DNA of 58,285 nt, filler included, from Jimgerdemannia flammicorona (Eukaryota): NCBI GenBank assembly GCA_003990765.1. It is 3 parts of 3 records of this genome, joined end to end, with 100 filler letters (N's around TTAATTAATTAA, not from the genome) between each part and the next. Parts side by side here need not be neighbours in the genome. Positions count along the whole stretch, not along the records: positions 1 to 19,370 come from RBNJ01001954.1; 2 more parts are not named here. The stretch is one strand, 5' to 3'. The position numbers and the translations under genes are program-made. The notes under the pieces were generated by a model. That model was not told the origin of the DNA and ran no database searches. It saw only the letters and a list, made by a program, of their open reading frames with translations. Numbering within the stretch: position 1 is the stretch's first letter; each line of letters begins with the position of its first letter. Positions 955 to 47,448 of this stretch are shown here, piece by piece.

Positions 955-2600
955 TTTTATTTTTATTTTTTTTTTTATGGTTACTTGGACTTCTACTTTA
1001 TTATTACCCTATCTATGTTATACTAATATAGATATACTCCTCACTTAATCTTATAGGGAGCCACCTCTGTCTTTCCATCTCTCTGAAATATTATAATTTT
1101 CTCTACTACTCTAATCCTCTCTCTACTTCTCTCACAAATCTTCTTTATAAGTCTCAAATGAAGCCTATCTCCAGATCTTTATCCTCATTACCATCTATTC
1201 AAAAGCTCTAGTATTAACTATTCCCACCTAGCAATCTGCATCCCCAGGACCAACTTTTGGCTATTCTCAAATACATATAGCCAATGTCCAGTAAGCATAA
1301 TCTATATAGTCAGAACTCACTAATAATTAATCACTCACTATTAACCCCTTCCACCAGTCTCCTCTAAAGGCCATCTCACCTTCTCCCCCCCCCCTCAGCC
1401 TAGAGAATAGTTCCTCAGCTAGTCTTTAATTACCTTCTAAAAGTCTTCAAAAACTTTACACTCTCTCAGCCAATATTTTGGGGTCTGAATTACTCCTTAC
1501 TTCTGTCTGTTATCAAATTACTTCTTGCACTCCAAGGTCTCTCCTATTATTAAAAATTCTTACCAGAAGCTCAATATTATATTTTGCTATAGAAGTCTCC
1601 ACTAAGCTACTTAGAACTTAGATGGGATCCACCATACCACCTTCTTACTCTTTGATCAGATACCAGTCTAGTCAAACTCTTTACAAATTCCTACCCCCTA
1701 TCAATCCTCTAGTCCCAGATCTCTCTTATACTTTTAAAGATACTTCATATTATTCTTTAGACTAAAGTTAACCACAGATATATCCTCCAGTAAGAGATAA
1801 TTTTACCACTATATCTAGAGTCTCTAGTTTATCTCAATCTCATTACTCAGATCCAGCATAAGTATCTAGCTATAGCAATCACTACTCCTCCTACTAGTAT
1901 CTCTTTTTCCAATACTTCTAAATTCATATTCTCTTTCTCAAAGCCCACCTTTACTCCTTCCTGTCTCTTCAAGAACCTCACTAAGATCACTTCTTTTATT
2001 TTCTAGACCAGAAGCTATAGAACTATTTTCACTATAATGGCTAAGTCTTGAAAATATAGTATGATAGTAAGTAATAATGCTGTCATCAGATCTATTATAC
2101 TATTAGTTAAGTTCTCTAGCCTTATACTCCTCCACTACTCAGATCTATGATCAGACATCATATCTGGATTCTTTTTTAAATAGTAGTCTTCCCCTCATTA
2201 GCAGTCCTGCTCTCTCTAGCTGTTATTTTCTCAGCCCTATCACTAGTATCTCCTGGGGCCCTTCTACTAGGCCCTGCAGTTTCTATCTTTTTTATCTTCT
2301 TTTTGTCTCTTTGTAGTCACCTCTCTAAACCCATTGATGAGTGTCTGACCTTGACTTTATCAGCAAAACTTACTCTCTCAGTCTTCTATCTATTAGTATT
2401 ATAACCTCCTCTTTAATATTATTAGACAAAAAGTCCAACAGACTCATCCTTAAGCTATAACTTCTCTCTATATACTATCTGACAAATATACTAGAGCTGT
2501 TCTGTCTAGCATGCTTACTATTTCTCTAAAAGTTATATTATAAGTATTATCAGAGATTTTTATAATCTATATAGTTCTGAGATAAGAGCTATTCTTCTTC
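955..2600 (-). mobile_element. Decayed, internally deleted L1/Tx1-like LINE (ORF1 part joined to the 3' end)
   Basis: Poly-T at ~955-977 is followed by the reverse complement of AATAAAGTAGAAGTCCAAGTAACCAT, the same 3' end as the LINEs at 8109, 38827 and 56163. 1830-2200 resembles the ORF1 region at 33400-33770, and 1000-1740 resembles the 3' region at 55400-56160. The 5' boundary is approximate. Confidence 0.65.
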
Positions 2601-3063
2601 TACCAAGATGACTTTAGTATAAAAAAGTACTTACTTAAAAGTAATTAGAGCTGTAATGTCTTTCTTAATAATCACAGTTATAAGAGACTTGTTCTTTACT
2701 ATATAAGACTAAATTATCCTTAAAATTCAGATTCAATAAGGAGTTTTTTTTAAGTTTTTAAAATTTATATATTAGCTTCAATTCTGATAGAAGTTAGTAA
2801 GACTTCTGAAGTTTGGTCAGAAATACTAGAGTTACTTAAATATCATTACTAAGATTCAGGAGAATATATATATAAAGGAAGGAACTTGATTCTTATATTA
2901 AGAACTGAAGATATATATATATTTTGGTTTACAATTTCAGGCTAAGTATGAATAACTAATTTGAGAATAATAAATAACCTTTGTAATATGTTCAATATGA
3001 TTAAAACCTTTGTAATCAGGACTTTTATACTATAAATAGTTAGGTAATGATCAGTTAATGCTA

Positions 3064-6000
3064 TTAGGGTTAGGGTTAGGCTTCAAGAAATAATTTATTT
3101 ATTATAGAGAAGAGAAGGTATATATATTAGAGTAATAAATAGCAAATACTCCTAAGTTGAGAAGAGCAAAAAGAGGTCAGCAAAGTAAACAACTAACTAA
3201 GAAGAATAAAATAAAGATCAGAGAGATAACTACTCTATAGATGAGCTGAATAAATCATTTTCTTATAGCTATAAAGATAATAAAATGCAAAAAGTAAAGA
3301 AAGAGAAGCTAAAATAAAATATACATAAGCTTACTGCTAACTATAGGAATAATATTGATAACCAAATACTAAGTAACTAATATGAGATATATAACTCAAT
3401 ATACTCTCAATAATAAGAAACCAACCAAGATTAATAAGAGAAAGAAAAGAAATACAGAAAATATACAATCACTTAATTACTATGATTTTGAAGAAATAGA
3501 ACTCAACTGCAAGATAGTTATTAGAATTGTACATAGTATCAATAATATGGTAGACTGTCTTATAAAGAGTATGAAGAGAGTAGGTATGAAGTTCCTTCTG
3601 CTATTTATTTATCAATAGTAAACTATTTAAGATTACAACTAGTATTACCTTAGAAGACCGTATACAAACCATCAAGAAGACTACACCTATAGAGATAGCT
3701 ATAATGAAACTCATCTCTATAGAAGTATGGGTGAGGTTGACCAAAATGGCCATAATATCAGATAAGAGTACAATAAACAAACTAGGAGAGAAAGAAGAGG
3801 ATATAATCAACCTCTCTTGACTATAAGTAGTCACAGGACATAATGTACCAAATGAGAGTCTGAGAGAAGGAGGCTTATTTCTATAGTAGCTAATTCTGAA
3901 GAAAGGACTGGAGAAAGGAGTAGAGTGGGCTAGTCTTGTGAATCTGGAGGCAGAGATCTCAGTACTAGTTAAGAAAGTCAAGCTAAGAGATTTAATACTA
4001 GAACTTATCAATAATAGAATCTGGAGAATGTATAATAAAGTGCTCACTAAGGGAGCTGATGGGGTTGTTACCAGACTCACTACACTAATCCAAATAGGCT
4101 TGATATAGCAGAGGTCTGAATTCAACAACAAAAGGAAGAGAGGCTGAGGACTAAACTGCCAAGCAAGGGCTAGCCAGAAAATCCAACCATCTAAGTGACA
4201 GTATCATCAAAGATCTACTCAGAGTATGTACTTCATTATCTAAAGCTCTAAGATAGTGACTGGACAGGAGTTTATAGAAGGGAGAGGCTATATTCTAGCT
4301 GAGGTCTGATAAAGGTATGAATGATAGCCAGCTTAATCATTAGCAACTAGAGGGGACCATGAGTATAGCAAAAACCAAGAGTATATTCTGACTTTACCAT
4401 ATTCTGTAATACCTGATTGATAAAGTCAAATCTGTTATTGATATATAGCATGCCCAGATATATATAAGAGGGGATTGATGAGTACAGTTCTCTCTTGATT
4501 AGTATAGTATAGTTGAGTTCAATGATATTCACTGTAAGCAAATCCTTACAAAATTCAACTATCCTTTGACTCTTAGCAGTAGTGTAAGGAATAAGAGTAA
4601 TATCATTATTAAAGAAAAGGCTAAGAGAGAAGTCATATTTCTTAAATAGTCATCAAAGGAGATAGTAAGGAGGTTAATAAAGATGTCAAAATGCCAAGAA
4701 GAGAGAAGGGAGTCCTGGAAGAGGCCATGCCCAGCAGGGACTAGAGAGATGATAAGGCCATTAATAACTATCTGATAAGAACAGTAATTGAAAAGGCTCC
4801 AGATAATACTAAGATGGCTATATTAGTACCTTGCTCCTCAAGTCAGAAAATAATAAGCTTGAGGGAGACTTAATCATATGTTCACTTGGAGTAAAGAAAG
4901 ACATGGCTACCCCACCTCTTGGTCTATATCTTATGTGAGAGCAAGACATAGAAAAGAAATGAGAAGTAGGTTAGAAGCCACTTTAGCAGTGCAAAATTTC
5001 TATCAGACTACTTCAGGATTTGATATAGTATTTTAAATATTACTCAAAGAGTTGGTGAAACATCTCAGTAAAAGTAATAGGGTGAAAACTATCATTTGTT
5101 AGAGATTTCACTTTATTGAAGATTGCAAAGGTGATAGCAATATTTTAGTAGCAGAGAGATAGCTCTCAAATCAGAAGAGGGAACAATTTGTGGCAGTTGT
5201 AAAATAGGAGGTGGCATAATGGCAGAAAGATGGGCAGTTGATAGCAGAATGGTGGGATAAATTCAAACATTTGGTAGAAACTTACTGGCATGATATTGGA
5301 GAAGTGGCTGGGAAGGAGCAGAAGGACAAAAAAAGGAGAGTAGAGCAAGGGCTGTAATGGTGACTGAAGCTACTAGAAAGGGAGACCTTGTCTGGAGAGG
5401 TGTGCCACTGGTTGGCAGTAGAGGTAGCAGAGTTACAGGCAGATTTGAGAGCATCTGAGAACAGAGTAGTAGATGGCCTACTAGTCAAATTGTGGACCAG
5501 ATGGTTGGAAGAAGGAGAGAGGCCAACTAAGTATCAGTCAGATATTTTGAAGGCCAGGAAGGTATGATACAGCTGGGTCTCAGTATTATGTGAAGATAGA
5601 GTAGAGGTCTCAGAGATTGCTGACATGTTAGGAGAGATATCAGGACAATGGCAGGCTCTCTGATAGGATGGCAGAGAGCATGCTGAGGATACAGTGCTTT
5701 GGGAGAACAATGATAATATGGTGAATAATTGGCCAGTAACAGCATTGTCTAAGATAGGGAAGATAGTCATAGGGGAGGTGTCTTTAGATGAAGTATTGGA
5801 AGTAATGAGGAAGATGTAGACTGATTCATCATCTGGGGAGAATGAGTTGCCCTGGGAATTCTGGAAGGAGTTCCAGACAGAGTTTGGTAGCTGGTTGGTA
5901 GAGATGGCTAACTTCATTCTAAAGAAGAGCAGCTGAATTGACAATAGTTCCTTGGGATTAGATTCCCTTCCATATAAAGAAAAGGGAGATTGATGAGTGT

Positions 6001-8106
6001 GGTATAATTGATGACCTATCATGCTGCTGAATGTAAATAGAAAGCTGGTTTCAAAGATTCTGGCATGGAGGATGCAGCAGTATATTGATGTACTAGTTAG
6101 CGAAGAACAGTGAGGCTTCATCAAGGGGAGGCAGATTAGAGATAGCACTGCTTGGGTATAGAATGTCCTGGAGAGTTATAGGAGCTGACAGGTAGATGGC
6201 TGGATGGTCTTTCTAGATCAAGAGAAGGCCTATGACAGAGTGTGGTGAAGTTATTTGGAGACTGTTCTGAAGAGGGTAGGATTTGGTGTAGCAGAGGTAG
6301 GGTGATTGATGGGTTTAATACAGAGATGCTGAGCAGTAGTTATTATGAATAGATGGAGTGGACCAGAGTTTGCCTTCAGGTATGGTGTGCTACAGAGGGA
6401 CCCTCTCTCCTCCCTCCTTTATGTATGCTCTCTGGAGCCTTTACTGGTATGGCTAAAGGGGTGACTTTCTGGACTGTGGATGGGTAATGTGGTCAGGAAG
6501 CTAGGTGCCTTCATAGATGACATAGTGGTAGGGTTGAGTAGTATGGAGGATGTGGATCTCCTACAGGAAGGGGTTGGACAGTATGAGAGGCTGGCAGGAG
6601 CTAAGCTAAATTGGGGCAAGTGTGAGACAATGGAACTTAGTGCTGGCCTGAGGATATATGGACAATTTGGACAATTGGTGGTGACAGAGAGTGCTGTTCA
6701 GTATCTGGGTATTTGGTTCTTAGTATATGAGACAGTCTTGTTGAAGGAGTAGTAGTGTGGATTGATTCAGAAGTTAGAAGGTGCTTTGACAGATTGGTCA
6801 GAGAGGGGCTTCTCCTTAGTAGATAAGATAGTGGTCTTAAATGTATATTGGTCATCTAAAATGTGGTATCCAGGACACCATTAGGACTTTTTAAAGTGGG
6901 TAGTATAGCAGCTGAAGAAGATTGTGGAGGGGTAGTTGTGGCATGGGAAGTGGCCACAGATTGGATGGGATATACTAGTGATGAGGGCAACTGATGGAGG
7001 CCTGGGGTTGGTGGACTTCAGGTACTGGTTGAAGGTACTTTGAGGTTGGTGGGGGTGCTAACTGGTAGTTCTATTGAGGAAGGTTGGGGCAGACTGGCTA
7101 TGGACAATTGGGAGGTCTGGTTCTACCCCCATGGTGAGATTTGGAAGGATATATGGGGTCTGCTTCAGATTGAAAATATATATAGACTGTGGTATAAGGA
7201 GTTCTGGTGGGGTATTATAGAAGCCTGGCTGGTCATTGAGTTGGCAGGCCCAGAGATAGAGGTGGGTGAGAACCCTGAGCTGAGGTGGTAGTGACTGAGA
7301 GACCTCTGCATTGGTGGCCATAGTTTGAAGGAGTACTCCCTGGTTGAGGTGATAGAGTAGAACAGGTCTGGTCCTCTGGAGAGATGGCCAGCAGGTTGGC
7401 AGAGAGCAGGAATTGGTAAAGGCTGTGAGTGGGACCATATCTAGAGTTGGAGAGCCTCTTTACTCAAGGTGGTGCCCCTTAAGTACTAGGAGGTTTGGTG
7501 GTAGTTTTTACAAAGGAATGTAATTTTGGGTTATTGGACAAGCTGAATGGTGGTAGATGGTTGTTGAGACTGAGTGGTGCAGTGAGGTGGATGGAGGGGT
7601 GGTTCAGATGCCAGAGTATATTCTGGTAGCCTGCCCAGGTGTTGAAGAGCTTTGACAGAGTTTAGAAGGTTACTGGGACCCTGTGAGTCAAAGATCAGGG
7701 GATCCAGTCAGTCTGATGGTCAAGTGCCAGCTGGTGGAGGAGATTTGTGATATCTGAGGTAGTCTAGATTATGTTCTGGAGGTTGGGGTCCTGATGGCAG
7801 TGCATTGACAATGGGTATTTGAGTAGAACCCATAGATGGGAATTAGAGAGCTGATAGAGTGGTAGTGGTGGCTACTCCAAGAGGTGGTACAGGGATGATA
7901 GTATCAGAGGAAGCAGCTTCAACTAGGGGTCTTAAAGAAGGTACAGAATATTGTACTACAGAGTCAAGAGCACCTGGTATCAGATGATCATAGGGTTAGG
8001 TGGAAGAATGGAGTTAACCAAGCTGCCCTCTTTATATATATTATGTTAGTAGTGGTTTATAGTTAATTGTTATTGTAATAAGTAACAAAGTTGGAGTCCA
8101 AGTGAC

Positions 8107-8298: not shown

Positions 8299-8816
8299 CT
8301 TCAATGTAAGAATTTATTTATTATAAAGAAGATAAGATATATCAGAGCAACAAATGGCAAAGACTCCTAAGATAAGAAAAGCAAAAAGAGGCCAGCAAAG
8401 TAAACAACTAGCTTAGAAGAACAAAACAAAGGCCAGAGAGGTGATCATCCTAAGGACAGAATAGATAAACTATTTAGTCACAGCTATAAAGATAATAAAT
8501 GTGAAAGCAAAAAAAAGAGAGAAGCTAAGCTATAGTATACAAATGCCCAGCACCAACAATAGGAATAATATTGAAACCCAAATACCAAATAACTGACATG
8601 AGATAAATAATCAATATACTCTCAATAATAAGAGAATCAACTAAGATAAATGAGAGGAAAGAAGAAAATAAAGAAAATATATAATTGCTCAATCACTTAA
8701 GTATCTTTAAAATCTTACTCAGACAGAACCTGAGTGCGAGGTGGCCATCAGAATTATACATGGCATTGATGCAATCAATAGAATGATTGGATGTCTTGTG
8801 AAGAGTATGAAGAGAG
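8299..8816 (-). mobile_element. Telomeric-junction LINE copy B (3' ~0.5 kb only)
   Basis: Colinear with 3081-3580 and 9811-10318. There is no clear TTAGGG tract at its own 3' junction. Confidence 0.85.
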
Positions 8817-9790
8817 TTAGAGTTGGGTTAGGGTTAGGCTTCAAGTAAAAATTTATTCATTGTAGAGAAGATAAGATATATCAGAGTAATAAACAGCAGA
8901 GACTCCTAAGATGAGAGAAGCAAAAAGAGGCCAGTGAAGTAAACAACTAGCTAAGAAGAACAAAATAAAGACCAAAGAGATGAACACTCTGTAGATAAGC
9001 TAAATAAACCATTTTGTTATGGCAATAGAACAAAAATGCAAAAAGCAAAGAGAGGAGAAGCTAAGATATAATATACAAATACCTAGCACCAACTACAGAA
9101 ACAATATTGATACCCAAATACCAAATGACTAATATGAGATATATACATAACTCAATATACTATCAATAACAAGAAAACCAACTAAGGTAAATGAGGGGAA
9201 AGAAGAGAGTAAAAAAAATATACAATCACTTAATTACCCAAGTATATTCATAATCTCAGTCAGACAGAACCCAATCACAAGATGGCTACCAGAATTATAC
9301 ATAGTATCATAGCATGATAGGCAGTCTTGTAAAGAGCATGAAGAGGGTAGATTCAAAGTTCCTCCTATTATTCATCACTGATAAATCAATTGAGCTGTTC
9401 ATCATGATCAGAATTATCTCAGAAGGCAGAATTCAAACCATCAAGAAGACCACACCTGAGGAGATGGCCACAATGAAACATATCTCTACAGGGGTAGGGG
9501 TAGAGTTGGCCAAAGTTGCCATAATGCAAGGCAAGAGTTGAGCACATAAGCCAGAGGGGGAAGAAGAGGATGCAATTGGCTCTCTGAGACTATAAATACT
9601 CTTTGAGTGTATTGTATCAAATGAGAACCTGGGAGGAGAAAGCCTATCCTGAAGCAGCTGGTCTCAAAGAATTGACTGGAGGAAGGAGTAGAGTAAGTGA
9701 GTCTTGCAGATCTGGGGATGGAGGTCCCAGTATCAGTTGAGGAAGTTAAGCCAAGAGGTCCAACTCCTGAACTTATTAATGATAGAACCT
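8815..9790 (-). mobile_element. Telomeric-junction LINE copy C (3' ~1 kb)
   Basis: Starts with GTTAGAGTTGGGTTAGGGTTAGG-CTTCAAG and is colinear with 9811-10803. Confidence 0.88.
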
Positions 9791-12700
9791 GGGTAAGAGT
9801 TAGGGTTAGGCTTCAAGTAAGGATTTATAAATTATAGAGAAGACAAGATACATAAGAGGAATAAATAGCAAAGACTTCTAAGATGAGAAAAGCAAATGAG
9901 GCCAGTGAAATAAACAACTAGCTAAGAAGAACAAAACAGAGGTCAGAGAGGAGACTACCCTATGGATGGGCAGGATATAACTATTTTGTCACAGCCATAA
10001 AGATAATAAATGTGGAAAGCAAAGAAGAGAGAAGCTAAGATAAAATACACAAATGCCCAGTGCCTACTATAGGAGCAAATCAACACCCAAATACCAAATG
10101 ACTGATATGAGAAGAATAGCTCAATGAGCTCTCAACAATAAGAGAACCAACTGAGATGAATGAGGAGAAAGAAGGAGATAAAGAAAATGTGTGATTGCTT
10201 AATCACCCAAGTATCTTTGTAATCTCAGTCAGGCAGAATCTGACCATGAGGTGGTCACCAGAATTACACAAAGTATCAATAGCATAGTAGGCTGTCTTGT
10301 GAAGAGCATGAAGAGAGTAGGCATGAAGTTCTTCCTGCCATTCATTACTAGTAAACCAATTGAGCTGTTCATCATGATCAGAATTATCTTAGAAGGCAGA
10401 ATAGGAGCTATTAAGAAGACTGCACCTAAGGAGATGACCATGATTAAACTTATCTCTACAGGAACAGGGGTGGAGTTGGCCATAATTAAACTTATCTCTA
10501 CAAGAACAGGGGCAGAGTTGGCCAAAATAGCAATATTGCTAGGTGAGAGCAGAGTGCACAAGCTGGGGGGGAAAAGAAAGGACACAATCAGAACCCCAAG
10601 ACCACAACCAGCCTTCGGGAGTAATGTACTAAACCAGAGCCTGAGAAGAGGAGGTCTATTCCTGGAGCAGCTGATTCTAAATAAATGACTGGAGGAAGAA
10701 GCAGAGCAAGTGAGTCTTGCAGACCTGGGGATGGAGGTCTCAGTTCCAGTCAAGGAAGTCAAGCCAAGAGGTCAATTGCCAGAACTTGTCAATGATAGAA
10801 CCTGGGGGATGTATGACAAAATGCTTGCTAAGGAGGCAGATAGAGTTGTTGCCAGAATTACTACATTAGTTCAGATGGGCTTGGAACATGCAACAGAGGT
10901 CCAACAAATGACAAAGAAAGGAGAGGAGGCCAAGAATCGAACTGCCAAGCAAGGGACAGCCAGAAAATCTGACTGCCCAAGAGACAGCATCATCAAAGAC
11001 CTGCTCAGAATATTTCAACACCAGAAGCTCTATGGTAGTAGTTGGGCAAGAGGCTCATAGGAAGAGAAGGCCATATTCTAGCTGAGGCCTAATGAAAGTA
11101 CATACAATGGCCAGCTTGACCTTTAGCAACCAGAGGGGATCCTGGGCATAGCAGAATCCATGAGTACATTCCACCTTAGCTACATTCTGAAATGCCAGGC
11201 TGACAAAGTCAAATCCTTTGTTGGTATATAGTATGCATGCTCAGGTAAATGTAGGAGGGGGTTTGTAGGCAGGGTTCTCCCCCAATCTGTACAGTACAGT
11301 CAGCAGGGCTAACATAACTACACTTCTTGGAATTGAGCTCCATACCATTCTCCAAGTGCTATGCTTCACAAAAGTCAATCACCCTTTGCCCTTCCACAGC
11401 AGTGCGGGGGGTAAGAGCAATATCATCCACAAAGAAGAGCTCAAGAGGGAAGTTGTACTCCTTAAACTGCTCATCAAAGGAGGTGACTATGGGGTCAATG
11501 AATATATCAAAGAGCCAGGGGGAGAGAAGAGAGCCTTGAAAAAGGCTATGCTCAGTAGGGACTGAGGGAGTGACAAGATCATTGAAAACCACCTAATAAG
11601 AACAGTGGTTGAACAGACTTCAGATAATTCTAAGGAAGGCCACATCAGTACCTTGTTCCTTAAGTCAGGAGGGAATGAGTTTGAGGGAGACTCTATTATA
11701 TATCTGCCAGAGGTCAAGAAAGATACAGTGGCCCCACTCCTTTGCCCACATCTCATGTAAAAGTAAGACATGGTAGAGGGATGAGAAGTGGGTTTGGAAG
11801 CCACCTTGGCAGTATAACATTTCTGTCAGGCTACTTTAGCTCTTGATATAACCTTTCAAGCATCACTCAAAGAGTCTGCGAAACATCTCAGTAAGAGTGA
11901 TCAGGCAAAATCCATCAATTGTCCTTGACTCCTCCTCCTTGGAGACTGGGGTAATGATGGCAGAGTTCCAGTAGTGAGAAGTGAGCCCCCAAACCATGCA
12001 CATCTGAAAGAAAAAGGAGAGGGCTTTTGACAGACTACAGAGGGCATCCTTCTCACCTACTATCACCCAAAGGATCCAGACATGCAAGGAGTCAGCCCTA
12101 TAGGCCTTTATGAGGGGGTAGCTATAGATAGCCCTCCAAACTGCAGGCTGGTCAAATTAGGACTGCAGTCCAGAGCACCCACATCAAAGAGAAAGATATT
12201 CACAGAGTCATCAAGGTGGAGAGAGGTATCTGGTTAGCTGAAGATAGTGATAAAATGAGCAACTATATTATCAAAGACCAAGACAGCAGTTGAATGAGAC
12301 TGGAGGGGAGTGGGAGGGGTTGAGCAACATACTTACTTAAAACCACAAATAGTATTAGAGACCAAAGATGAACTGTGAAGGTCCTACTGAGAGAGTGATG
12401 CTGTCCTGATTTCTCTTGTGTCATACAAGCCCAATATGTCCTTACAGATAGACTATAGACCAGAGGTCTGGAGAGAGTCAAGAGAATTCACAAACTGCTG
12501 GTAATCTTCCACAGACTGAAAGCCAGTAATGTGGTCTTGAGCAGAGTAGATGGACCTAATAATAGTATTACAAATGATATCTATAGATTTCCCAAGGTGA
12601 GCTTGGATGACTGAATCAGTCAGATACTTCACAGAATAGAAGTGGATACCAGCCAAGGCAGTAACTAGTAAGGGGGAGAAGGGAAAGGAGATAGTGAGAA

Positions 12701-14879
12701 GGGAGGGGTGATCAGTAGCAACAGGAGAAGTAGTGCAGGTGAGAGACATATGGAGAGATGCAGTGGTGAACGTATGGTCAATATACATATATAGATCCAG
12801 CTACCAGGGTCAGATGGTTCAATGACTACATCATCAAGGAGATATTGACAACATCCATCCAATCTCTAGGACCAGAGTTGACATCACTAAGTTGGGTACC
12901 AAAGCAGATATTGATGTCACCAATCAAAGGGCCTTGCCTGGGAAGGGGCCAGACATAAGATTATGGAAATCACTAATAGTAAGAGAGGGGGGGGCATAAA
13001 CTATGACTAAGCTAAGCTCTGAAACATGAGCAGAATATGGAAGGGGTCAGTAGAGGACCTGGAAATAAGAGAGGTGAAATGGTTTGACATAAGGACTATG
13101 AGACCACAATTCTGGTGACCTATAATCCTGTGTGATGCCAGGGGAGAAGATATGTGAACAAGCAGAGAGGGATACAGTAGGATATACTATATTTCACATA
13201 TGAAAAGAATATTGAGAGCAGGATCAATCAGCCAACTGAGTACATTGAACTTGTTCTGAGTTAGTCTATGTATTGAGGAACCCAACTCTTAGGCAACAGC
13301 CTATAGAAAAAAAAAAAAAAAAAAAAAAAAAGAGGAACCCAACTCTCATTGTAGGCTGGGTGCATTAGCATCAATAGCATGGGAAGTATCTGAAGAGAAA
13401 GCCTCAGCTTCCAGATTCATCGCCATCTCCCCAGTCATGACTACAGTACCACCTGCCTTCAAAGCAGGGCTGACCAACAGAGGAGTGAGAGAGTGGAGAG
13501 TGAGGCCAAGTTCTACAGCCCATACCTTGTAGAACATCTGCAACTCTGGCCTCTTTGCAGTAGCATTGCCAACCAACTGCTAGACCAAAGTATAGGAGAA
13601 TTGGAGTACTCATGCTTTCATGGCCTCTGTGGTGTTCTTGTTGTGTGGGAGGGCAGAGTTCTAGGCCAAAAGTACCAAAAACCCAAGCACCTTCATCTTC
13701 TTTTGGAATGCCATGACATAATTAGGGTAGAGGAGGAATTTAATGATTAATACCAAAGCATACAATATTTTGAGACCTTTTGACAACATCATATGGATGT
13801 TATACAGTTCTTCCAGATCTGCCTGATCTTCAAATAGGTGAATCCATTAAAATAAATATGCTACAGCCTGGCATCTCTTTTAGTGAGCAACAAATGAGAG
13901 TTCAGCTGGTTGGTCATACATGAGAGGACAGTGGTAGTGGTAGCCCTTTCAGTCTTGGGGTAGGCCTGAGTCCTATTCTTGATAGTGACCTTCTTGGTAG
14001 TGGCCCAGGGGCCTTGCCCTTACCCTTTTTAAAGGGTATGGCTTTGGCAGCCAGAGGTGCTGCCATGAGAGTTGCCTTCTTCAGACTGTGATATAGCAGC
14101 TTTAGTGGCCTGCTTGTCTACTCACTTCTGGGCCTTCAACCACATGTTTGTGACAGGACCAGTAGGAGGGGGGGCTGAGGACTTAGGGGGGGTAGTTGTG
14201 GAAGGAGCAGTGGGGGTACTTTCTGAAGGAGTACCAGATAACATGAGGGCAGTGGGCACTATAAGCACAGCAAGCTATGCCATCAGCTGAGTATTGATCT
14301 TGGCCATTTCAACCACTTGAGTTAGCAGATCTGAGATCTGCTTTCTCATTATGGCCATCTCTATGACCAGATCAGGGTTAGCTGAGGGGCCTGCATGACT
14401 AGCTATCAGGGTCATATCCAAACTAGTATTCAGGCGACCACACTTATTCCAATTGAGGAATGAGGGTGTGGGAGAGAAGGGTGGACACTGGGCATCATGA
14501 CCTGAATTAGAAGAGATTGTGATCTCTTCATTATCTTTCACATCATGCAGGGAAGACAAATATGCCAATATCAGTTATATATCCCTATATAACCTATATA
14601 TTGCTATAAGGCTACTCTTATCGAAACTGAGAGAGAGAAGACTGATGCAGTATAGTAGAGAGAGGCACCAAAGTACACAAAGAGATAGTGGTATTACCAT
14701 CATTACTAATGAAGGAGGAGGTGGCCAATATTGCTAGAATAGGTAAAGATGTGTTTATTTATATTTAGGAAATTGTGAAATGCAGGTCACATGACCTTTG
14801 TTGTGCAATGAAAAAATGATGAGGAAGTGGGTATTTATACCCAATAGAAGGCTTAGCAAAATCAAAGTGACTGCTTTCA
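9791..14879 (-). mobile_element. Telomeric-junction LINE copy D, near full length (~5.1 kb; ORF1 plus APE endonuclease-RT-zinc-finger ORF2, decayed)
   Basis: Minus-strand motifs: LVIVYAPP (~12990-13010), LIGDINI (~12910-12930) and YIDH...TDH (12700-12790) indicate APE. ITLTEMFRRLFE, LFQGSLLSPWLFDIFID, FFVDDIAL and FIRPQLEYG indicate RT. CPCSCRDKFNHGH is a C-terminal zinc finger. ORF1 remnants lie at ~13350-14570. The 3' junction reads GGGTAAGAGTTAGGGTTAGG. Confidence 0.9.
13275..13346 (+). mobile_element. Minimal retrotransposed insertion (17 nt plus A25) with perfect 15-bp TSD
   Basis: GAGGAACCCAACTCT (13275-13289), then TAGGCAACAGCCTATAG(A)25, then GAGGAACCCAACTCT (13332-13346). Confidence 0.9.
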
Positions 14880-16023
14880 TTAGGGTTAGGGTTAGGTACA
14901 AGTAAGAATTTATTTATTGTAGAGAAGATAAGATACATCAGAGCAATAAACAACAAAGACTGTTAAAATGAGAAAAACAAAAAGAGGCTAGTGAAATAAA
15001 CAACTAGCTAAGAAGAATAAGATAAAGTCCAAAAAGATGACTATCTTATAGATGGACTGGATAAACTATTTTGTCATAGCTATAAGGATAATAAATGCAA
15101 AAAGCAAAGAAGAGAGAAGCTAAGATAAAATACACAAATACTCAGTACTAACTATATGAACAAATCAATACTCAAATACCAAACAACTGATATGAGATAT
15201 ATAACTCAATATGCTCTCAATAACAAGAGAACCAACCAAGACAAATGGGAAAGGAGAGGAATAAAGAAAATGTATAATCACTCAAACACCCTAGTATCTT
15301 TATAATCTTGGTCAGACTGAACCCATCTACAAGGTGGCTATCAGAATTACACATGACATCAATAGTATGATAGATTGTCTTATGAAGAGCATGAAGAGTG
15401 TAGGCATGAAGTTCTTCCCGCTATTTGTTACCAGTAAATCAATTGAGTTATTCATCTCAATCAGAATTATCTCAGAAGACAGAATAGGAACCATTAACAA
15501 CTGTACCTGAGGAGATGACTATGATGAAACTTACTTATCGCTATAGAGGCAGAGGTGGAGTCGGCCAAAGTAGCCATTATACTAGGCAAGAGCAGAGCAT
15601 ACAAGCTGGCAGGAGAAGAAGAGGATGTGATTGGTACCCCAAGACCATAAATAGCCTTTGGGAGTGATATACCAAATGAGCACCTAAGACAAGAATGCCC
15701 ATTTATAGAGTAGCTAGTCCTGAAGGAATGACTGAAGAAAGGAGCAGAGCAATTGAGTCTTGCAGATCTGAGGATGGAGGTCTCAGTACTAGTTGAGGAA
15801 GTCAAGCCAAGAGGTCTAATGCTGGAACTTATCAATGATAGAACCCAGTGGATACATGACAAAGCACTCACTAAGGGCACTGATGTGGTTATTGCCAGAC
15901 TTGCTACACTAATCTAGATGGGCTTGGAATATGTAGCAGAGGTCTAACATATGACAAAGAAAGGGAGGGAGGCTAAGAATCGAACTGCTAAGCAAGGGTT
16001 GGCCAGAAAATCTGATCACTCAA
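14880..16023 (-). mobile_element. Telomeric-junction LINE copy E (3' ~1.1 kb, interrupted by a gypsy LTR)
   Basis: Starts TTAGGGTTAGGGTTAGG-TACAAG. It is colinear with 9811-10980 until the LTR begins at 16024. Confidence 0.88.
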
Positions 16024-19000
16024 TGTAAGAGGATTGCTTTTTAGGGTAACCGTTATGTAGTTCTGGAAGGGTTTTCTGGAAGTTCTGGATATTCTAGAAG
16101 ACCATTTTCTTATGGTTAAGATCAATTTCATATGGAGTACATCCTCTATACTTATTGATTTCAAGATCACATTGATGTCTCAACCAAAGTCCTTTTTCAG
16201 ACTAGTTCTGGATATTCAGGATTTTCCGTATTTCAGGAAGTTCAAGAGACTAAGACTAGCTTAGTTGAATTGGCATATTGCTGCAGACAATACCCAATTA
16301 GGAAATTTCATGATGGGATTAGGAGTGGGACCTAATGGGGTAGATTTACTTAAGAGTGGTTTGTGGGTTATTAAATAGGTTTATTTACTATTCATGATAT
16401 TGCTATACTAGGAGTAATTGTATAGGAGATATTGTGGGGAAGTGTTTAGGAATAGTCTTGTGTGTTTGAGTCTGAGATTCTGAGGTCTGGGGGAATACTA
16501 GTGAGGGGCTATCTGGACTATGCTAAATATAGATGTAGCACTAAGTACCTTGCTGAGTTGGAATGCAGTCACATAGTACAAGTGTGATCTGATATGTCAA
16601 GAGATTGTCTGACTGCTGAGTCAGTTCACAGTCACGTGGTTCAAGGCTAATCTAACTATACTATGACTGCTAGGCTATTTATAGGTTTAGGCACTGTCTA
16701 GGTAGTCCTCGATGATATCACCATCAATTGCATCATCTCTGATGAAGTAGTCATCTAGAAAGAGTGGTTTGTGGATTACTTCTCCTTGTTTGCTGAGATA
16801 ATAATATATTAGAACTTCATCACCATCCCACAGAATAGCATAGTCTGTCTCATATGCTGGATAAGGTGTTGGTTCGTGAAGGAGGGGTATATCATCTTCA
16901 CTTTCATCAGATTCACTGTCTGCATACCTTCTGTAGGTTACAGCACTATGAGTTGCAGGGTTGTAGTAAGCTGGTGGCTGTGGTTCATGTTGCTCATACT
17001 TGGGTGGTGGAGTGATTGGTTCAACCTCGAGGGTTGTCTGGAGGTACAGGTCATGTTCTCCAGTCTCTTCATTATAGTTGAAGTAATCGGGAGTGAACGC
17101 AGGTTGGTATTCATGCCAGTGGTCATTGTCCCAATAAGTCTCATGTGCCATTATGAATTGTTGTAAGTTCATTAGCAAGGTTGGCAGTGTGATCAGGGTT
17201 GGCAGAAATCCTTGGCTAGAGGTCATGTCGGCATCAGAGGGATCATTATCTTCTGCTTCATCTTCATCGAAGTAGATTATATCATAGATGTCCTTTATGG
17301 TATATCCAACTTGGAGCATTTGCAGGATATGATCATTGGGGTGTGGAAAGGTTCTGTCTGTGGTGTCAATATACTCAAGATACTTGTTGTATCATGTCAT
17401 CAATTTGGCCATAGAACAGGGTAGCAACCATTTCAGCTGTGGTAACTCGGAGGTGGGTAATAATGGTGCTATACTCATAGAAGAGTTCTTGATGTTTGCG
17501 GGCAATGAGCTTCTGATGTTGAGACATCTTGGTAATGTCTGTATCATGGTGGTATTCGATCATGTCTTCCAGGAGGTGGCTGATCTGGTAGTAGCTTGAG
17601 ATTTGTCTGATTCGGTTGGCCTCGCTAAGCATGTTCAGAGCATTCCATCGGGCTTCCACAAAGTAGAGGGGTGCTAGTCTATGGATATTTATGAGGGGCA
17701 GAGGGGGTGTGGCTTGGTTGACAATGGCATTCCAAATGTCAGTACAGATACAGGTATAGATCTTGGTGGTCATGTTTGTATGTTTGGAAGTTGTGGTTGT
17801 TATTTGTTTTGGTTCTCTGATTTGACACATCTTGGTGCTCAGTATATATGCATTTGATCCTGATTGGTAAGATTCCGTTTGTGTAAATCTTGTGTTCTGT
17901 GACTTCATATTGACTCAGCTTTGTATGCCATGACTTTGGTTTGACTCAGCTTTGTGATCAAGCAGGTGATTTCCAGATTTGTTCAGAGGTCACATGTGAT
18001 TTCAGTGGCTTGGAGGTTGTGTACTTACAACCCTCCCCTTCTTAGCTTTCGACATCCTCATCAGGGCCTTCTAATTTTATTCAGTGGTACAGGGAGAATA
18101 GGCTTGCTTTCAGTTTTGCCATTTTTCCAGAGGGTCAGTATTCTTGTTTTGTTTTGCTGAGTTCTTGGTTTGGTTTGCAATAATTATAATATTCAGGAGG
18201 ATAATATACAGTATGTACAGATAGGTGTGGAGTATTTGGTTCTAGTTGTTCAAGAAATTATATTCCTGAACTAGGTCAGTAGTATTCTGGAGATTGGTCT
18301 TGGGTTCCCAGGTTACATCGTGGATCAGGTAACCTTTCTATTTGACAAGATACTCAGGGTGGCTCTTGTTGCCATGTTTGTTGAGGATTTGTTCAACTTT
18401 GTACTCTTCTTGATCATTAATAATGACAGGTGCAGGTGGTTTGGTGGTCCAGTGTGGAAATAGCTTGTCATCATTCTCATTGTATCACTTGAGACATTGA
18501 ACATTAAAGACTGGGTGAATCTTAATGGTATCCAGTAGCACCAATTTGTAGGAGGTTAGAGAGACTTGTGCAATGACTTCAAATGGTCCAATGAACTTGC
18601 TGTTCAGCTTTGTAGATAGTCTGTGCTTGAGATTGTCAACTCGGTATCCTCTGATGTCCAGTAGAACTTTTTCTCCAATATTAAAGATTTCTTCTTGGCG
18701 GTGTTGGTTAATATACTGTAACTGTTGTTCTTGAGCTCATGATAAATTCTCGATGGCAATCTGACTTAGGTTGCACATTCGAAGTAGGAATTCTTCAACA
18801 GCTTCAACTATGGAGGGTTCTTCAGTGGTTCGGATAAGTGTCAAAGAGGTGTTTGGGTTTTGTCCAGTGTTAGTGAAGAATGGGGTCATTCTGAGAGAGG
18901 CTTGCTTGCTATTGTTATAGGCAAACTCAACTGTGGTAAGGTGTTCATGCCAGTCATCTTGTCTGTAGGAAACATAGTTCCTTAGCATATGTTCCAGAGT

Positions 19001-19370
19001 TTAGTTCATTCTTTCAGTTTGGTTATCAGTTTCCAGGTGAAAGGCTGTGGATAGTGCAAGTTTTGTTCCAAGGTGTGTATGGAGGGCTTTCCAAAAATGG
19101 CTGGTGAATTTCGCATCTTGGTCACTAATAATGATCTTGGGAAGACCATGATAGCAGAAGATGTTGTCAAACAAGAGTATGGCTATGTCTGGTGCTGTTG
19201 CAGTAGTGGTAGTAGGCACAAAGTGGGCTTGTTTGCTGAGATAGTTCACAAAGAAAACAATTGCATCTTTCCCATTCTTGGTTCAGGGTAGTTGTACAAT
19301 GAAGTCCATAGAGATTTGTTCCCAATTTGTAGATGGTACTGGGACAGGGTGAAGTAAGCTGGGTTTTGCT
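16024..19370 (-). mobile_element. Ty3/gypsy chromovirus 3' part: integrase, chromodomain, PPT and ~2-kb 3' LTR (16024-18029)
   Basis: Integrase motifs SDQDAKFTSHFW, STAFHLETDNQTERMN and VEFAYNNS. Chromodomain EYKVEQIL...YLVK.KGY...TWEP at ~18290-18410. The PPT complement ACCCTCCCCTT is at 18030-18040. The LTR is bounded by TGTAAG...CTTACA. Confidence 0.92.
16687..17908 (-). pseudogene. LTR-internal ORF of unknown function (177-aa and 210-aa pieces of one ancestral ~410-aa ORF)
   Basis: Two long ORFs. The paralogous LTR (30811-30822) has 11 extra nt at the junction, which restores a single frame. Confidence 0.75.
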
Positions 19371-19470
19371 NNNNNNNNNNNNNNNNNNNNNNNNNNNNNN
19401 NNNNNNNNNNNNNNTTAATTAATTAANNNNNNNNNNNNNNNNNNNNNNNNNNNNNNNNNNNNNNNNNNNN
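19371..19470. other. Artificial contig spacer
   Basis: 44 N, TTAATTAATTAA (stops in all frames), 44 N. Confidence 0.98.
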
Positions 19471-21118: not shown

Positions 21119-24141
<3,023 letters not shown>

Positions 24142-28648: not shown

Positions 28649-29425
28649 TGCCACCGTGACAACATTTACGTCACTAAATTGTGGCGCTGTTAATAATTCT
28701 TGTCACTGAGGTACGCCGATTTGGCTGTAAAAAAAAAAAATTGAAGTTCATGTGAGTACCTTGAGGTACGGGGTCCATCATGACTAACTGGACCCAGATC
28801 AAGGCCTTTTTTGAGAATAAGCAAGGCCCTAATCCCTTTAACAACCATATTTTCTGTGGCTTATATATATGCAAATTTACATAACTGAGTTTTTTATATA
28901 ATGTTATTTTCTTTTACTTTATCTGCCTTATCTGCTTCTAATACTCCTATACCCACATCAGCTGCTGCTATTGTCAGATGGCACAACTATACCCTTGCTG
29001 TTACCTCCTTATCCAGTCAAGCCATTGCTCACTTATCTTCATTATCTGAAGCTATTGCTGGTCTGTTTTTATTGTTTCAAGCTATTGTCAGCTCTTTCTC
29101 GTCTTTATCTACCCAAGTTGTTGCTACCCTATTCTTGTCCACCCAAGTTGCTGCCAGCTCATCATCAGCTTTTTTTGTGGACAAGTACAATATTCCTATT
29201 AATATCCTCCTTAGTCATCTATATATAAGTATTTTGAAAAGTTTTCTTAAACAAATAAATAGCAAATTACCTAAAGGAGTAAAGCTATGTGAAAATATAA
29301 AAAAAGATGAGTTATAGGAGCAGTTGTATAAGTTTCTTGAGCTTAGGGATGGTGGTTTAGTGATAAATGTTCAAGATCCTATCACTGTTTATAAGAATCT
29401 TGAATTTTCAAGAATCAATCATAGA

Positions 29426-32400
29426 TATAAGAGGGTCGCTTTTTAGGGTAACTGTTATGTAGTTCTAGAAGGGTTTTCTGGAGGTTCTGGATATTCTGGA
29501 AGACCATTTTCTTAAGGTCAAGATCAATTTCATATGGAGTACATCCTCTATACTTATTGATTTCAAGATTGAGTTAATGTCTTAACCAAAGTCCTTTTTT
29601 GGACTAGTTCTGGATATTTAGGATTTTCTGTATTTCAGGAAGTTCAAGAAACTAAGACTAGCTTAGTTGAATTGGTGTATTACTGCAGACAATACCCAAT
29701 TAGGAAATTTTGTGATAGGGTTAGGAGTGAGATCTAACAGGGAGCAGATTTATTTAAGAGTGGTTTGTAGGTTATTAAATAGATTTATTTGCTATTTATA
29801 ATATTGCTATACTAAGAGTAGTTGTGTGAAGGGATATTGTGGAGAAGTGTTCAGGAGTTGTGTTCAAATTGTTTAAATATTTAAGTCTGAGATTCTGAGG
29901 TCTGGAGGAGGGGGTATTTATACTAGTGAGGGACTATCTAGACTATGCTAGATATAGATATAGCACTTAGTATCTTACTGAGTCAGAATATAGTCATGTA
30001 GTACAAGTGTGATCTGATATGTCAAGAGATCATCTGACTGCTGAGTCAGTTCACAGTTATATCATATAAGGCTAATCTAACTATACTATGACTGCTAAGC
30101 TATTTATAGGTTTAGGTGCTATCTGAGTAGTCTTCAATGATATCACTATTGATGGTATCATCTCTGATGAAGTAGTTATCTAGGAAGAGTGGTTTATAGA
30201 TTACTTCTCCTTGTTCACTGAGGTAATAATATATTGGGACTTTGTCACTATCCCACAGGATAGCATTATCTGTTTTGTATGCTGGGTAAGATATTGGTAG
30301 GCAAAGGAGGGATATATCATCTTTGCTTTCATTGGATTCACTGTCTGTATATCTTCTATAAGTTACAGTACTATAAGTCACAGGATTGTAGTAAGCTAGT
30401 AGCTATAGTTCATGTTGCTCATACTTGGGTGGTGGGGTAGTTGGTTCAATCTCAAGAGTTGTCTAGAGGTATAGATTGTGTTCTCCAGTCTCTTCATTAT
30501 AGTTGAAGTAGTTAGGAGTAAACATGAGTTAATATTCATGCTAGTGGTCATTGTCTCAATAAGTCTTATAGATAGTTATAAACTATTGTAAGTTTATCAG
30601 CAAGGTTGGTGGGGTAATCAGGGTTGGTAGGGATTCTTGGCTGGAGGTCATATTGGTGTTGGAGAGATCATTATCTTCTGCTTTGTCTTCATCAAACTAG
30701 ATTATATCATAGATATCCCTCATAGTATATCTAACTTGAGGCATTTATAGGATATAGTCATTGGAGTGTGAGAAGAATCTGTCTGTAGTCTGAACATACT
30801 TGAGATACTTATGATTGAGTTCTTGTATTATATCATCAATTTGACTATAAGACAAAGTAGTAACTATTTCAGTAATAGTAACTCAAAGGTGAGAAATAAA
30901 GGTGCTATACTTATAGAAGAGTTCTCAATATTTATAGGTAATAAGTTTCTGGTGTTGGGATATCTGGGTAATATCTGTATCATAATGGTATTTGACCATG
31001 TCTTCTAAAAGATGGCCAATCTGATAGTAGCTTGAGATTTGTCTGATTCAGTGGGCCTTGCTAAGTATGTTCAGGGTATTCCATCAGGCTTCCACAAAGT
31101 AGAGGGGTGCTAAGCTATAGATATTCATGAGGGGCAGAGGGGGTGTGGCTCAGTTGACAATGGTATTCCAAATGTCAATATAGATGCGGTTATAGATCTC
31201 AGTGGTCATATTTGTATATATTCAGAAGTTGTGGTTATTGTTTGTTTTGGTTCTTTGTTTTGATGTATCTTAGTGCTCAGTATATATATATTTGGTCCTA
31301 ATTAGTAAGATTCTGTTTGTGTAAATCTTGTGTTCTGTAACTTCATATTGACTCAGCTTTGTATACTGTGACTTCAGTTTGACTCAGCTTTATAATCTTG
31401 CAGATGATTTCCAGATTTATTTGGAGGTCACATGTGATTTTAGTAGCTTATTCAGAGGGTGACATGTGATTTCAGTGGCTTGGGGGTTGTGCACTTACAA
31501 CTCTCCCCTTCTTAGCTTTTGATGTTCTCATCAGAGTCTTCTAATTTGTTCTAGTATTGTTATACTATTTGGAAGATCAAAAGTCCAATAAAGTCCATTT
31601 TTTCAGAAAGTGGCATGCTCATAGTACAGTTGTCTAATATATTGGATTCATATATTAAAGGGTTGTGTGTTTAATGCTATGTACCAGAAGTGATTCTGAT
31701 ATCATTCACTGCTGGAGAATTTCCTCTAAGAAATTTTCTTAAATATCTATACCCTGTTTCCCACCAGTGGTATGGGGGGAATAGGCTGGCTTTCAGTTTT
31801 GCTATTTTTTTAGAGGGTCAGTATTCTTTTTATCTTGACTTGCTGAGTTCTTGATTCAGTTCATGATAATTAATATGTTTGGAAGAGTAATATATAGTAT
31901 GAACTAATAGGTGTAGTAGTGTTTGAGTTTCAGTTGTTCAAGGAATCATATTCCTGAACTAAGTCAGTAGTATTCTGGAGGTTGATTTTGAGTTTCCAGG
32001 TTACATTGTGAATTGGATAACCTTTCTATTTGACAAGATACTCAGGATAGTTCTTGTTACCACATTTGTTGAGAATTTGTTCAACTTCATATTCTTCTTG
32101 ATCATTAATAATGACAGGTACAGGTGGTTCTGTAGTTTAGTTTGGAAATAGCTTGTCATTGTTTTCATTATATTGCTTAAGACATTGGACATTAAAGACT
32201 GGGTAGACCTTAATGGTGTCTGATAGCACCAATTTGTAGGAAGTAGGAGAGACTTGTGCAATGACTTTGAATGGTCCAATAAACTTACTATTCAGTTTGG
32301 TAGATAGTCTGTGCTTGAGGTTGTCAACTCAGTATCCTCAGATGTCCAATAGAACTTTTTCTCTAATATCAAAAGTCTCTTCTCAGCAGTATTAATTGAC

Positions 32401-32954
32401 ATACTGTAACTGTTGTTCTTGAGCTCATGATAAGTTCTCAATCACAATCTGGCTTAGATTATGTATTCAGAGCAGGAATTCTTTGATGGCTTCAATAGTA
32501 GAGAGTTCATCAGTAGTTTGGATAAGTGTCAGAGAGATGTTTGGGTTTTATTCAGTATTGATGAAGAATGGAGTCATTCCAAGAGAGACTTGCTTACTAT
32601 TGTTGTAAGCAAACTTAACTGTGGCAAGGTGTTCATGCCAATCATCTTGTCTATAGAAAACATAGTTCCTTAGCATTTGTTCTAGTATTTGGTTCATTCT
32701 TTCAGTTTGGCCATCAGTTTCAGGGTGAAAGACTATGGATAGTATAAGTTTTGTTTCAAGGTGTGCATGGAGGGCTTTCCAAAAATGGCTGGTAAATTTT
32801 GGATCTCAGTTACTAACAATGATTTTAGAAAGACCATAATAGTGGAAGATATTGTTAAACAAGAGTGTGGCTATGTCTGGTGCTGTTACAGTAGTAGTAG
32901 TTAGTATGAAGTGGGCTTATTTACTGAGGTAATTTATAAAGACAACAATTGTAT
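29426..32954 (-). mobile_element. Second copy of the chromovirus 3' part (LTR 29426-31499, PPT, chromodomain, integrase), more mutated
   Basis: Colinear with 16024-19265 and has the same LTR boundaries (TATAAG...CTTACA followed by ACTCTCCCCTT). It is interrupted in the integrase by the LINE at ~32955. Confidence 0.92.
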
Positions 32955-38829: not shown

Positions 38830-38929
38830 NNNNNNNNNNNNNNNNNNNNNNNNNNNNNNNNNNNNNNNNNNNNTTAATTAATTAANNNNNNNNNNNNNNN
38901 NNNNNNNNNNNNNNNNNNNNNNNNNNNNN
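38830..38929. other. Artificial contig spacer
   Basis: 44 N, TTAATTAATTAA, 44 N. Confidence 0.98.
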
Positions 38930-47300: not shown

Positions 47301-47448
47301 GGACATTACGGTTATGGGCCGACCGCTAACTACAAGTCAAGGAGCAATAAGAGCACACTCCAAGGATGAAAATTATATGATGAAAGGTACTACGCCAGCC
47401 TTTGCCCCATCGACAAAGAGAACCACTGACGACATTGATATAAGTCGC

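Follow-up and report, generated by a model that had tools for sequence, protein, structure and literature searches.

Long terminal repeats (LTRs) are, to our knowledge, thought to be retained in LTR retrotransposons for their cis-acting signals only, and those of the fungal chromoviruses (MAGGY, Skippy, MarY1, and the Tf1/Tf2 group) are a few hundred base pairs long and non-coding. Complete genes located within the U3 region of an LTR are a hallmark of a few complex retroviruses. Here we describe a 58,285-nucleotide (nt) stretch of DNA from the Jimgerdemannia flammicorona genome assembly GCA_003990765.1 (hereinafter, the window), in which a Ty3/gypsy chromovirus ends in a unit of 2 kilobases (kb). 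The reading that we favor, with a probability of roughly 0.6, is that this unit is the LTR of the chromovirus and that its U3 region carries a single gene, about 365 codons long, for which no family has been described. An earlier reading of the same DNA (the sequence-only reading) had proposed an LTR-borne accessory gene of this kind, the product of which would perhaps recruit a host ubiquitin ligase via PPxY motifs or counter silencing; the LTR-borne gene is supported by the present analysis, the PPxY-mediated mechanism is not.

Architecture of the element and the boundaries of the putative LTR

The window consists of three contigs joined by linkers of the form N44-TTAATTAATTAA-N44 (19371-19470 and 38830-38929); because the joining is artificial, no feature is to be read across the linkers. 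The order along the minus strand is integrase core, SH3_Tf2-1 domain, chromodomain, the stop codon of pol, a spacer of ~200 nt, a purine tract, one T, and the 2006-nt unit. The features of the two copies of the element are as follows.

16024..18029, minus strand: putative LTR, copy 1 (3' LTR), 2006 nt, bounded by TGTAAG and CTTACA; the breaks seen in contigs from other runs fall at 18029 and at 16024/16026
18031..18043, minus strand: polypurine tract AAGAAGGGGAGGG, followed by a single T and then by the TG of the LTR; the same tract is present in copy 2
18485..19369, minus strand: decayed C-terminal part of pol in copy 1 (integrase core and SH3_Tf2-1), next to the contig joint at 19371
29426..31499, minus strand: putative LTR, copy 2 (3' LTR), 2074 nt, with the gene frame kept across the deletion junction of copy 1 and interrupted by 13 stop codons
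31945..32091, minus strand: C-terminal chromodomain of the copy-2 pol (PF00385; residues 51-99 of the translation of 31766-32241)

Because an integrase, an SH3_Tf2-1 domain and a chromodomain are encoded upstream of the unit, the element is a chromovirus, in agreement with the sequence-only reading. The decayed pol was translated with X at the stop codons for the domain search. In copy 1, this yielded the integrase core (PF00665, E-value 1.9e-5), at 25.3 bits under the Pfam cut-off of 32.6 in this decayed copy, and SH3_Tf2-1 (PF24626, E-value 2.5e-13), with no match to Chromo, a domain that is split there by a stop codon and a frameshift; in copy 2, the Chromo domain was recognized (PF00385, E-value 1.5e-8; score 34.9 bits, cut-off 25.1). 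Upstream of ~33100, copy 2 showed zero pol matches on its own strand. Across 32000-38800, where a different retroelement replaces or interrupts the pol of copy 2, the GC skew is very strong (between +0.38 and +0.51), and a fragment of a reverse transcriptase (RVT_1) lies on the plus strand at 36798-37406.

Copy 1 is located at the end of contig 1, and its element is truncated at 19370 by the contig joint. Comparison of the window with itself aligned 16023-18077 with 29425-31547 (82.0% identity, 2123 columns) and, further into pol, 18082-19266 with 31765-32954 (83.2%, 1190 columns); at the other side, the similarity between the copies ends at 16023/29425, and the flanks beyond these positions differ. 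Given that the same purine tract and pol adjoin both copies, they are the 3' LTRs of two separate insertions. Accordingly, they do not form an LTR pair and cannot on their own define the LTR, contrary to the sequence-only reading. The purine tract is present, although at 18043-18031 rather than at 18030-18040, and TGTAAG (18029-18024) and CTTACA (16029-16024) of copy 1 form a perfect 6-nt inverted repeat. Copy 2 shares the purine tract (31503-31513) and the TGTAAG start (31494-31499), but its other end has decayed to CTTATA. Copy 2 additionally contains ~220 nt between pol and the purine tract (31547-31765) and, close to where its LTR starts (near 31440-31470), a further repeat of 32 nt, which is also found in contigs of other runs (loose ends at 17988 and 18012).

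Further information on the boundaries comes from contigs of four other public runs (X1, X3, X4, and X8), none of which spans the whole unit. Soil metagenomes ranked best among the runs listed as containing this DNA, and the listing included no RNA run. Record 24 of X4 (403 nt) covers 17803-18029 and continues into 174 nt unlike the purine tract or pol. Two joints in X3 (18029 to 16392 and 18030 to 17274) can be read as one copy nested in another. The loose ends that precede 16024/16026 in X4, X8, and X3 are mutually discordant (agreement 0.57-0.65). In one X3 loose end, read in the sense direction, the end of the LTR is followed by 3 nt and then by TGGTAGCAGCAG; we take TGGTAGCAG to match the 3' end of the eukaryotic initiator tRNA-Met, and the junction resembles a primer binding site such as would follow a 5' LTR. 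The window holds no tRNA gene with which this sequence could be compared. The summed contig depth, which is not a copy number, gives a weak hint in the same direction, being 2.2-fold (X1) and 2.4-fold (X3) higher over the gene (16712-17871) than over the integrase region (18104-19370). Taken with the purine tract, the TG...CA ends, and the breaks at 18029 and 16024, it is highly probable that the 2-kb unit is an LTR. Scans of metagenome, viral, and genome contigs for related DNA loci returned pattern matches and zero confirmed relatives.

A probable single gene split by a private deletion

The unit contains two open reading frames (ORFs) in the sense of pol, both at the positions previously described.

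17375..17908, minus strand: ORF A, N-terminal half, 177 amino acids, with a probable conserved start at ATG 17773 (M46)
16687..17319, minus strand: ORF B, acidic, aromatic-rich C-terminal half, 210 amino acids, in a frame that is open already from ~17386
17387..17388, minus strand: site of an 11-nt deletion, private to copy 1 in the alignment with copy 2, that splits the gene

The 11 nt missing from copy 1 are present in copy 2, in X1 (7 and 13 loose ends at 17387) and in X3 (3 and 5), and a database protein related to ORF B (P0002, see below) spans the junction without interruption (...DDMVQELNQKYIKY..., with ELNQKY at the junction). Because copy 2, the X1 and X3 contigs, and P0002 all have these nucleotides, the two ORFs represent one gene with a private deletion. 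When the 11 nt are restored, ORF A and ORF B fuse into one frame, as had been noticed, which amounts to 410 codons from ATG 17908 or 365 codons from ATG 17773. The former ATG lies inside a 31-nt tandem module, and the second database relative (P0001) starts at the residue that matches ATG 17773 (M46). The likely start is thus ATG 17773, judging from these alignments, so that the previously proposed length of about 410 codons stands as a maximum and 365 codons is the likelier value. The gene lies wholly within the 2-kb unit, of which it occupies 54%, and its placement inside the LTR appears as secure, in our estimate, as the identification of the LTR itself.

Differences between the two copies are dominated by transitions (488 of 561, 87%). 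CpG sites are changed at 25-57%, versus 3-11% for other contexts in copy 1, in which changes occur almost only at CpG; in copy 2, CpA (26-29%) and CpC (17-22%) are also affected. This pattern of decay is compatible with cytosine methylation in a fungal host, or with a process akin to repeat-induced point mutation. On its sense strand, the element is poor in G (the LTR contains 695 A, 516 C, 488 T, and 307 G). Both copies in the window are dead 3' ends, copy 1 owing to the 11-nt deletion and copy 2 owing to the stop codons that arose by C-to-T and G-to-A decay.

Relatives and coding constraint

Protein relatives were sought among ~15 billion proteins, and the search with ORF B was exhaustive (HMMER) over 1.84 billion representatives. 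For ORF A, the near-relative search yielded P0001 alone (128 amino acids, JGI source, encoded on an 1180-nt contig), which is 80% identical to residues 46-173, and the search for longer relatives gave no match. For ORF B, P0002 (247 amino acids, ENA source, 998-nt contig) is 60% identical over 209 amino acids, with two 2-residue gaps. A further candidate for ORF B, P0003, was judged spurious (35 residues of a repeat protein, E-value 1.1e-6). The blocks shared between ORF B and P0002 are YQPAFTPDYFNYNE.TGEH.LYLQTT, AYYNPAT, SESDE, PTPYPAY, YYYL, and PLF.D.YFIRDD.

The longest stop-to-stop frame of the LTR comprises 234 codons. When the LTR was simulated 2000 times with a first-order Markov model, the longest frames averaged 80 codons, with a maximum of 203, and none reached 210. 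When ORF B was mutated randomly to 60% protein identity, it remained free of stops in 1.6% (kappa 2) or 1.3% (kappa 10) of 1000 runs, an argument that is weakened by the pre-selection of database proteins for open frames. The ratio of non-synonymous to synonymous substitution rates (dN/dS) between copies 1 and 2, estimated by the Nei-Gojobori method (NG86), is 0.22 in frame and 0.55 and 1.09 in the shifted frames, which served as the control because the excess of transitions biases the method.

We also reconstructed the ancestor of the two copies, with the transition differences polarised as C-to-T or G-to-A decay. This mutation-corrected ancestor has a continuous frame of 365 codons with zero stops. 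On the branch leading to copy 1, there are 30 synonymous, 20 non-synonymous, and no stop changes versus 20.8, 26, and 3.2, respectively, expected when these changes are reassigned at random among sites of matching dinucleotide context (P=0.0014). On the branch to copy 2, the corresponding numbers are 57, 79, and 13 versus 48, 89.5, and 11 (P=0.038), which is near neutral.

The third codon positions of the gene (A 0.20-0.30, C 0.28-0.39, G 0.12-0.15) resemble those of the integrase of the element (A 0.30, C 0.30, G 0.12) and are far from the composition of the exons of a neighboring poly(A) polymerase gene, with a GC content at third positions (GC3) of 0.70-0.81. Being similar to pol and unlike a host gene, this composition argues against a recent capture from the host. 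In the relatives, the gene is kept as one open frame, and in the active lineage it has evolved under coding constraint; altogether we consider a real coding gene to be probable.

Features of the predicted protein

The two halves of the predicted protein differ in the manner outlined in the sequence-only reading. The C-terminal 210 residues are acidic and rich in aromatic residues (31), with an isoelectric point of 4.05 and with 47 aspartates and glutamates versus 7 lysines and arginines. For the N-terminal 132 residues, AlphaFold2 predicts an all-helical structure of seven helices, with low confidence. The C-terminal part is probably disordered or without a recognized fold in these models. A search of the ESM Atlas gave no usable neighbor for ORF B.

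The PPxY motifs that had been noticed are indeed present in copy 1 (PPKY and PPAY); in copy 2, the first reads PPPKY, and the sequence at the PPAY site would be compatible with C-to-T decay. At the corresponding sites, P0002 reads TPLSEY for PPPKY and PLAY for PPAY, so that both motifs are absent. Because PPxY is not kept in P0002, the proposed Nedd4/Rsp5 mechanism is left without comparative backing.

Candidate signals within the LTR and possible routes of expression

Several motifs in the LTR, all retained in copy 2 before and after the gene, suggest how the gene and the genomic RNA could be expressed.

17890..17951, minus strand: pair of 31-nt modules in tandem, located ahead of the gene, with one TGAGTCA in each (17911-17917 and 17942-17948); kept in copy 2 (31349-31355 and 31380-31386)
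17842..17849, minus strand: TATA-like ATATATAC, candidate promoter of the gene by its motif, ~70 nt before ATG 17773
16676..16683, minus strand: TATAAATA, by its motif a candidate core promoter of the genomic RNA, 4 nt past the stop codon; in copy 2, 30101-30108
16551..16653, minus strand: pair of 40-nt modules, spaced 63 nt apart, that contain TGACTCA and CACGTG; inverted relative to the upstream modules
16524..16531, minus strand: second TATA-like box, downstream of the gene
16380..16385, minus strand: AATAAA, candidate poly(A) signal by its motif, kept in copy 2

TGA(C/G)TCA corresponds to the AP-1/Gcn4 site. The gene (17773-16687) lies upstream of TATAAATA (16683-16676) and of AATAAA (16385-16380); with the core promoter and the poly(A) signal placed in this way, it would be located in U3 and 3' of pol in the genomic RNA, and would be copied into both LTRs. 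Specifically, reverse transcription would copy the segment from the purine tract to the 3' end of the RNA into both LTRs, such that every new insertion would contain the gene twice. Expression could follow either of two routes: (i) a short mRNA that would start near the 5' end of U3, under the TGAGTCA modules and the TATA-like box, and end at the AATAAA of the same LTR, or (ii) a spliced subgenomic RNA that would read the copy in the 3' LTR, as in the case of the sag gene of mouse mammary tumor virus (MMTV).

In X4 and X8, which we guess to be RNA, the contig depth is 350-4095 at 16132-16479, 0-220 elsewhere in the LTR, and ~0 over pol. The peak may represent a short LTR transcript initiated downstream of the second TATA-like box (16524-16531), or else sequence that the LTR has in common with a more abundant family. 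The TGAGTCA-bearing modules on either side of the gene (16615-16648 and 17917-17950) match each other in inverted orientation over 34 nt with 71% complementarity; this match may be due to chance or a trace of an old insertion.

With respect to function, the product could be an accessory factor for the element that combines a helical N-terminal domain with a disordered acidic and aromatic tail. Acidic activation or adaptor domains typically have a composition of this kind, and such a factor could raise transcription from the LTR or sustain the expression of the element in repressive chromatin. A role as an activator or adaptor is a tentative guess that we deem unlikely as it stands, and an anti-silencing role is pure conjecture. 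Somewhat less likely still is the most far-reaching possibility, namely that the LTR is a self-contained cassette comprising enhancers, its own promoter, the 365-codon gene, the genomic promoter, and the poly(A) signal. If this were the case, every LTR, including solo LTRs, could express a trans-acting protein that activates or shields the family, and the chromovirus would possess an independent fungal counterpart of foamy-virus Tas or MMTV Sag.

Alternative explanations

Several observations weigh against an LTR with a functional U3 gene. There is no complete element or 5' LTR in the window, where both copies are 3' LTRs, and the junction that resembles a primer binding site pertains only to the U5 end of a 5' LTR. 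The depth over the last 700 nt (16016-16711) is 5-6 times that over the integrase, such that the profile has two steps. The protein has no Pfam family for either ORF A or ORF B, a sequence search of the Protein Data Bank gave nothing below an E-value of 0.17, and the structural models are of low confidence (pLDDT 42.0 for the N-terminal 132 residues and 30.7 for the C-terminal half). The only two relatives that were found are both fragments, on contigs of 998 and 1180 nt without known context. The pronounced surplus of transitions lowers the NG86 ratios, the copy-2 branch departs little from neutrality, and the gene is less similar between the copies (80.9-82.9%) than the non-coding parts of the LTR (86.6-89.9%). 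Finally, the promoter, splice, and function readings come from motifs alone.

Some of these observations are compatible with a different placement of the gene, as an internal third ORF at the position of env, in which case the true LTR would comprise only the last ~650 nt (16024 to ~16680) and the tract at 18031-18043 would not be the priming site. Consistent with such an arrangement, the depth in X1 and X3 rises ~2.3-fold at ~16711, the downstream TATA-like and AATAAA signals all lie within this last part, and no 5' LTR is seen. However, neither a purine tract nor a TG start is present near 16680, CTTACA (16024-16029) pairs with TGTAAG (18024-18029), one contig enters unrelated DNA exactly at 18029 and two joints fall at 18029/18030, and the depth falls at 18103 as well; we regard the shorter LTR as quite unlikely. 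The frame could also be a functionless relic or accident that is open owing to the G-poor sense strand. The outcome of the searches (no family, fold, or RNA evidence, and two database relatives only) is in line with this possibility, as are the faster divergence of the gene compared to the flanking LTR and the near-neutral copy-2 branch. It is nevertheless improbable, considering that none of the composition-matched simulations reached 210 codons, that all 247 codons of the 60%-identical relative are open and its gaps are all in frame (the neutral probability of no stop being 1.3-1.6%), and that synonymous changes are in excess on the copy-1 branch.

If the gene is real and resides in the LTR, it might still be foreign cargo, namely a gene captured from the host or a small nested element, carried along passively in the LTR of one subfamily. 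The inverted TGAGTCA modules that flank the gene could be construed as a sign of such an insertion, and a high-depth X8 contig of 9601 nt contains, near one end, a 139-nt stretch 84% similar to 16875-17013 while being otherwise unlike the LTR. Yet the inverted match is weak, the exhaustive HMMER search over the 1.84 billion representatives found no host-type homologue, the third-position composition equals that of the pol of the element and is far from that of host genes, and constraint is seen on the copy-1 branch, so that passive cargo seems very unlikely. The X8 contig itself may belong to a related element or gene that shares a segment with the middle of ORF B. Action of the protein mainly via PPxY, through recruitment of a Nedd4/Rsp5-type ubiquitin ligase, would agree with the PPKY and PPAY motifs of copy 1, the PPPKY of copy 2, and the decay-compatible PPAY site of the latter, but P0002 lacks either motif and the conserved blocks lie elsewhere (YQPAFTPDYFNYNE, PTPYPAY, YFIRDD); this mode of action is as doubtful as the shorter LTR. 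An LTR with a constrained U3 gene is the reading that we retain.

Neighboring features

Among the other features of the window, two are gene-like.

21270-24097, plus strand: poly(A) polymerase gene in at least 6 exon pieces (PAP_NTPase, PAP_central, and PAP_RNA-bind)
41469-43019, minus strand: Crinkler N-terminal domain (PF20147, E-value 2.6e-11) beside two AAA-ATPase_like pieces (PF09820)

The introns of the poly(A) polymerase gene are short and of the fungal type (GTAAGT...CTGAC...YAG), one of them being ~58 nt long; together with the CpG-type decay, they make a fungal host likely. An ESM Atlas search with a fragment of the poly(A) polymerase returned Eukaryota as the sole assignment, with mixed phyla. 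The locus at 41469-43019 looks like a gene for a Crinkler-type modular protein that is possibly broken. An F-box fragment and an ankyrin fragment were detected as well. Another repeat family consists of ~1-kb units of 70-80% identity, partly in tandem (3063-5099, 8299-11922, and 14879-16015), with RVT_1 fragments nearby (6465-6749, plus strand; 11362-11592, minus strand); the chromovirus LTR abuts this family at 16015-16023. A 37-nt tandem repeat with ~19 copies occupies 47436-48129.

Comparison with known systems

The closest analogy to the layout proposed here is the sag gene of MMTV, which is likewise a complete protein gene within U3, doubled in both LTRs and located 3' of pol in the genomic RNA. 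MMTV differs in being a retrovirus of animals and in lacking sequence similarity to the present element (Pfam gave no match here), and Sag is a type II membrane glycoprotein, whereas the product of the LTR gene is acidic and has no predicted fold. The tas/bel1 and bet genes of foamy viruses and lentiviral nef are also 3' accessory genes that overlap U3. An acidic activation domain and an internal promoter of its own characterize the transactivator Tas, which can serve as a working model for the LTR gene. In contrast to the LTR gene, which is wholly inside the LTR, these genes start upstream of the purine tract and merely overlap U3, and no homology between them and the LTR gene was found.

Among plant Ty3/gypsy elements, Ogre (ORF1) and Retrosat2, RIRE3, and RIRE8 (ORF0) resemble the present element in carrying lineage-specific, fast-evolving orphan ORFs and in having unusually long LTRs. 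The LTRs of Retrosat2 exceed 3 kb, and ORF0 is reported to have a higher non-synonymous substitution rate (Ka) than pol (PMC3485330). The same report places ORF0 between the 5' LTR and gag-pol (PMC3485330); being upstream of gag and outside the LTR, ORF0 of Retrosat2 was set aside as a precedent for the LTR gene. The plant elements also differ from the present element in host kingdom and chromovirus clade. The "LTR ORF" of a Talaromyces paper was likewise dismissed, as the term there means the pol ORFs.

The fungal chromoviruses (MAGGY, Skippy, MarY1, and the Tf1/Tf2 group) share with the present element the Tf2-1-type SH3 domain and the C-terminal classical chromodomain with an aromatic cage, but differ from it in that the LTR described here is 2.0 kb long and consists to 54% of one gene. 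Our literature searches turned up no account of a fungal chromovirus that carries a protein gene within its LTR. The element is an LTR retrotransposon whose extra ORF occupies a position used by only a few retroviruses. A constrained orphan gene that fills half of a chromovirus LTR would represent a second, independent origin of the U3-gene layout; each insertion would hold two copies of the gene, and solo LTRs produced by recombination could remain coding. Such a layout bears on the escape of elements from host silencing or the manipulation thereof, and the LTR gene supplies a concrete protein for testing.

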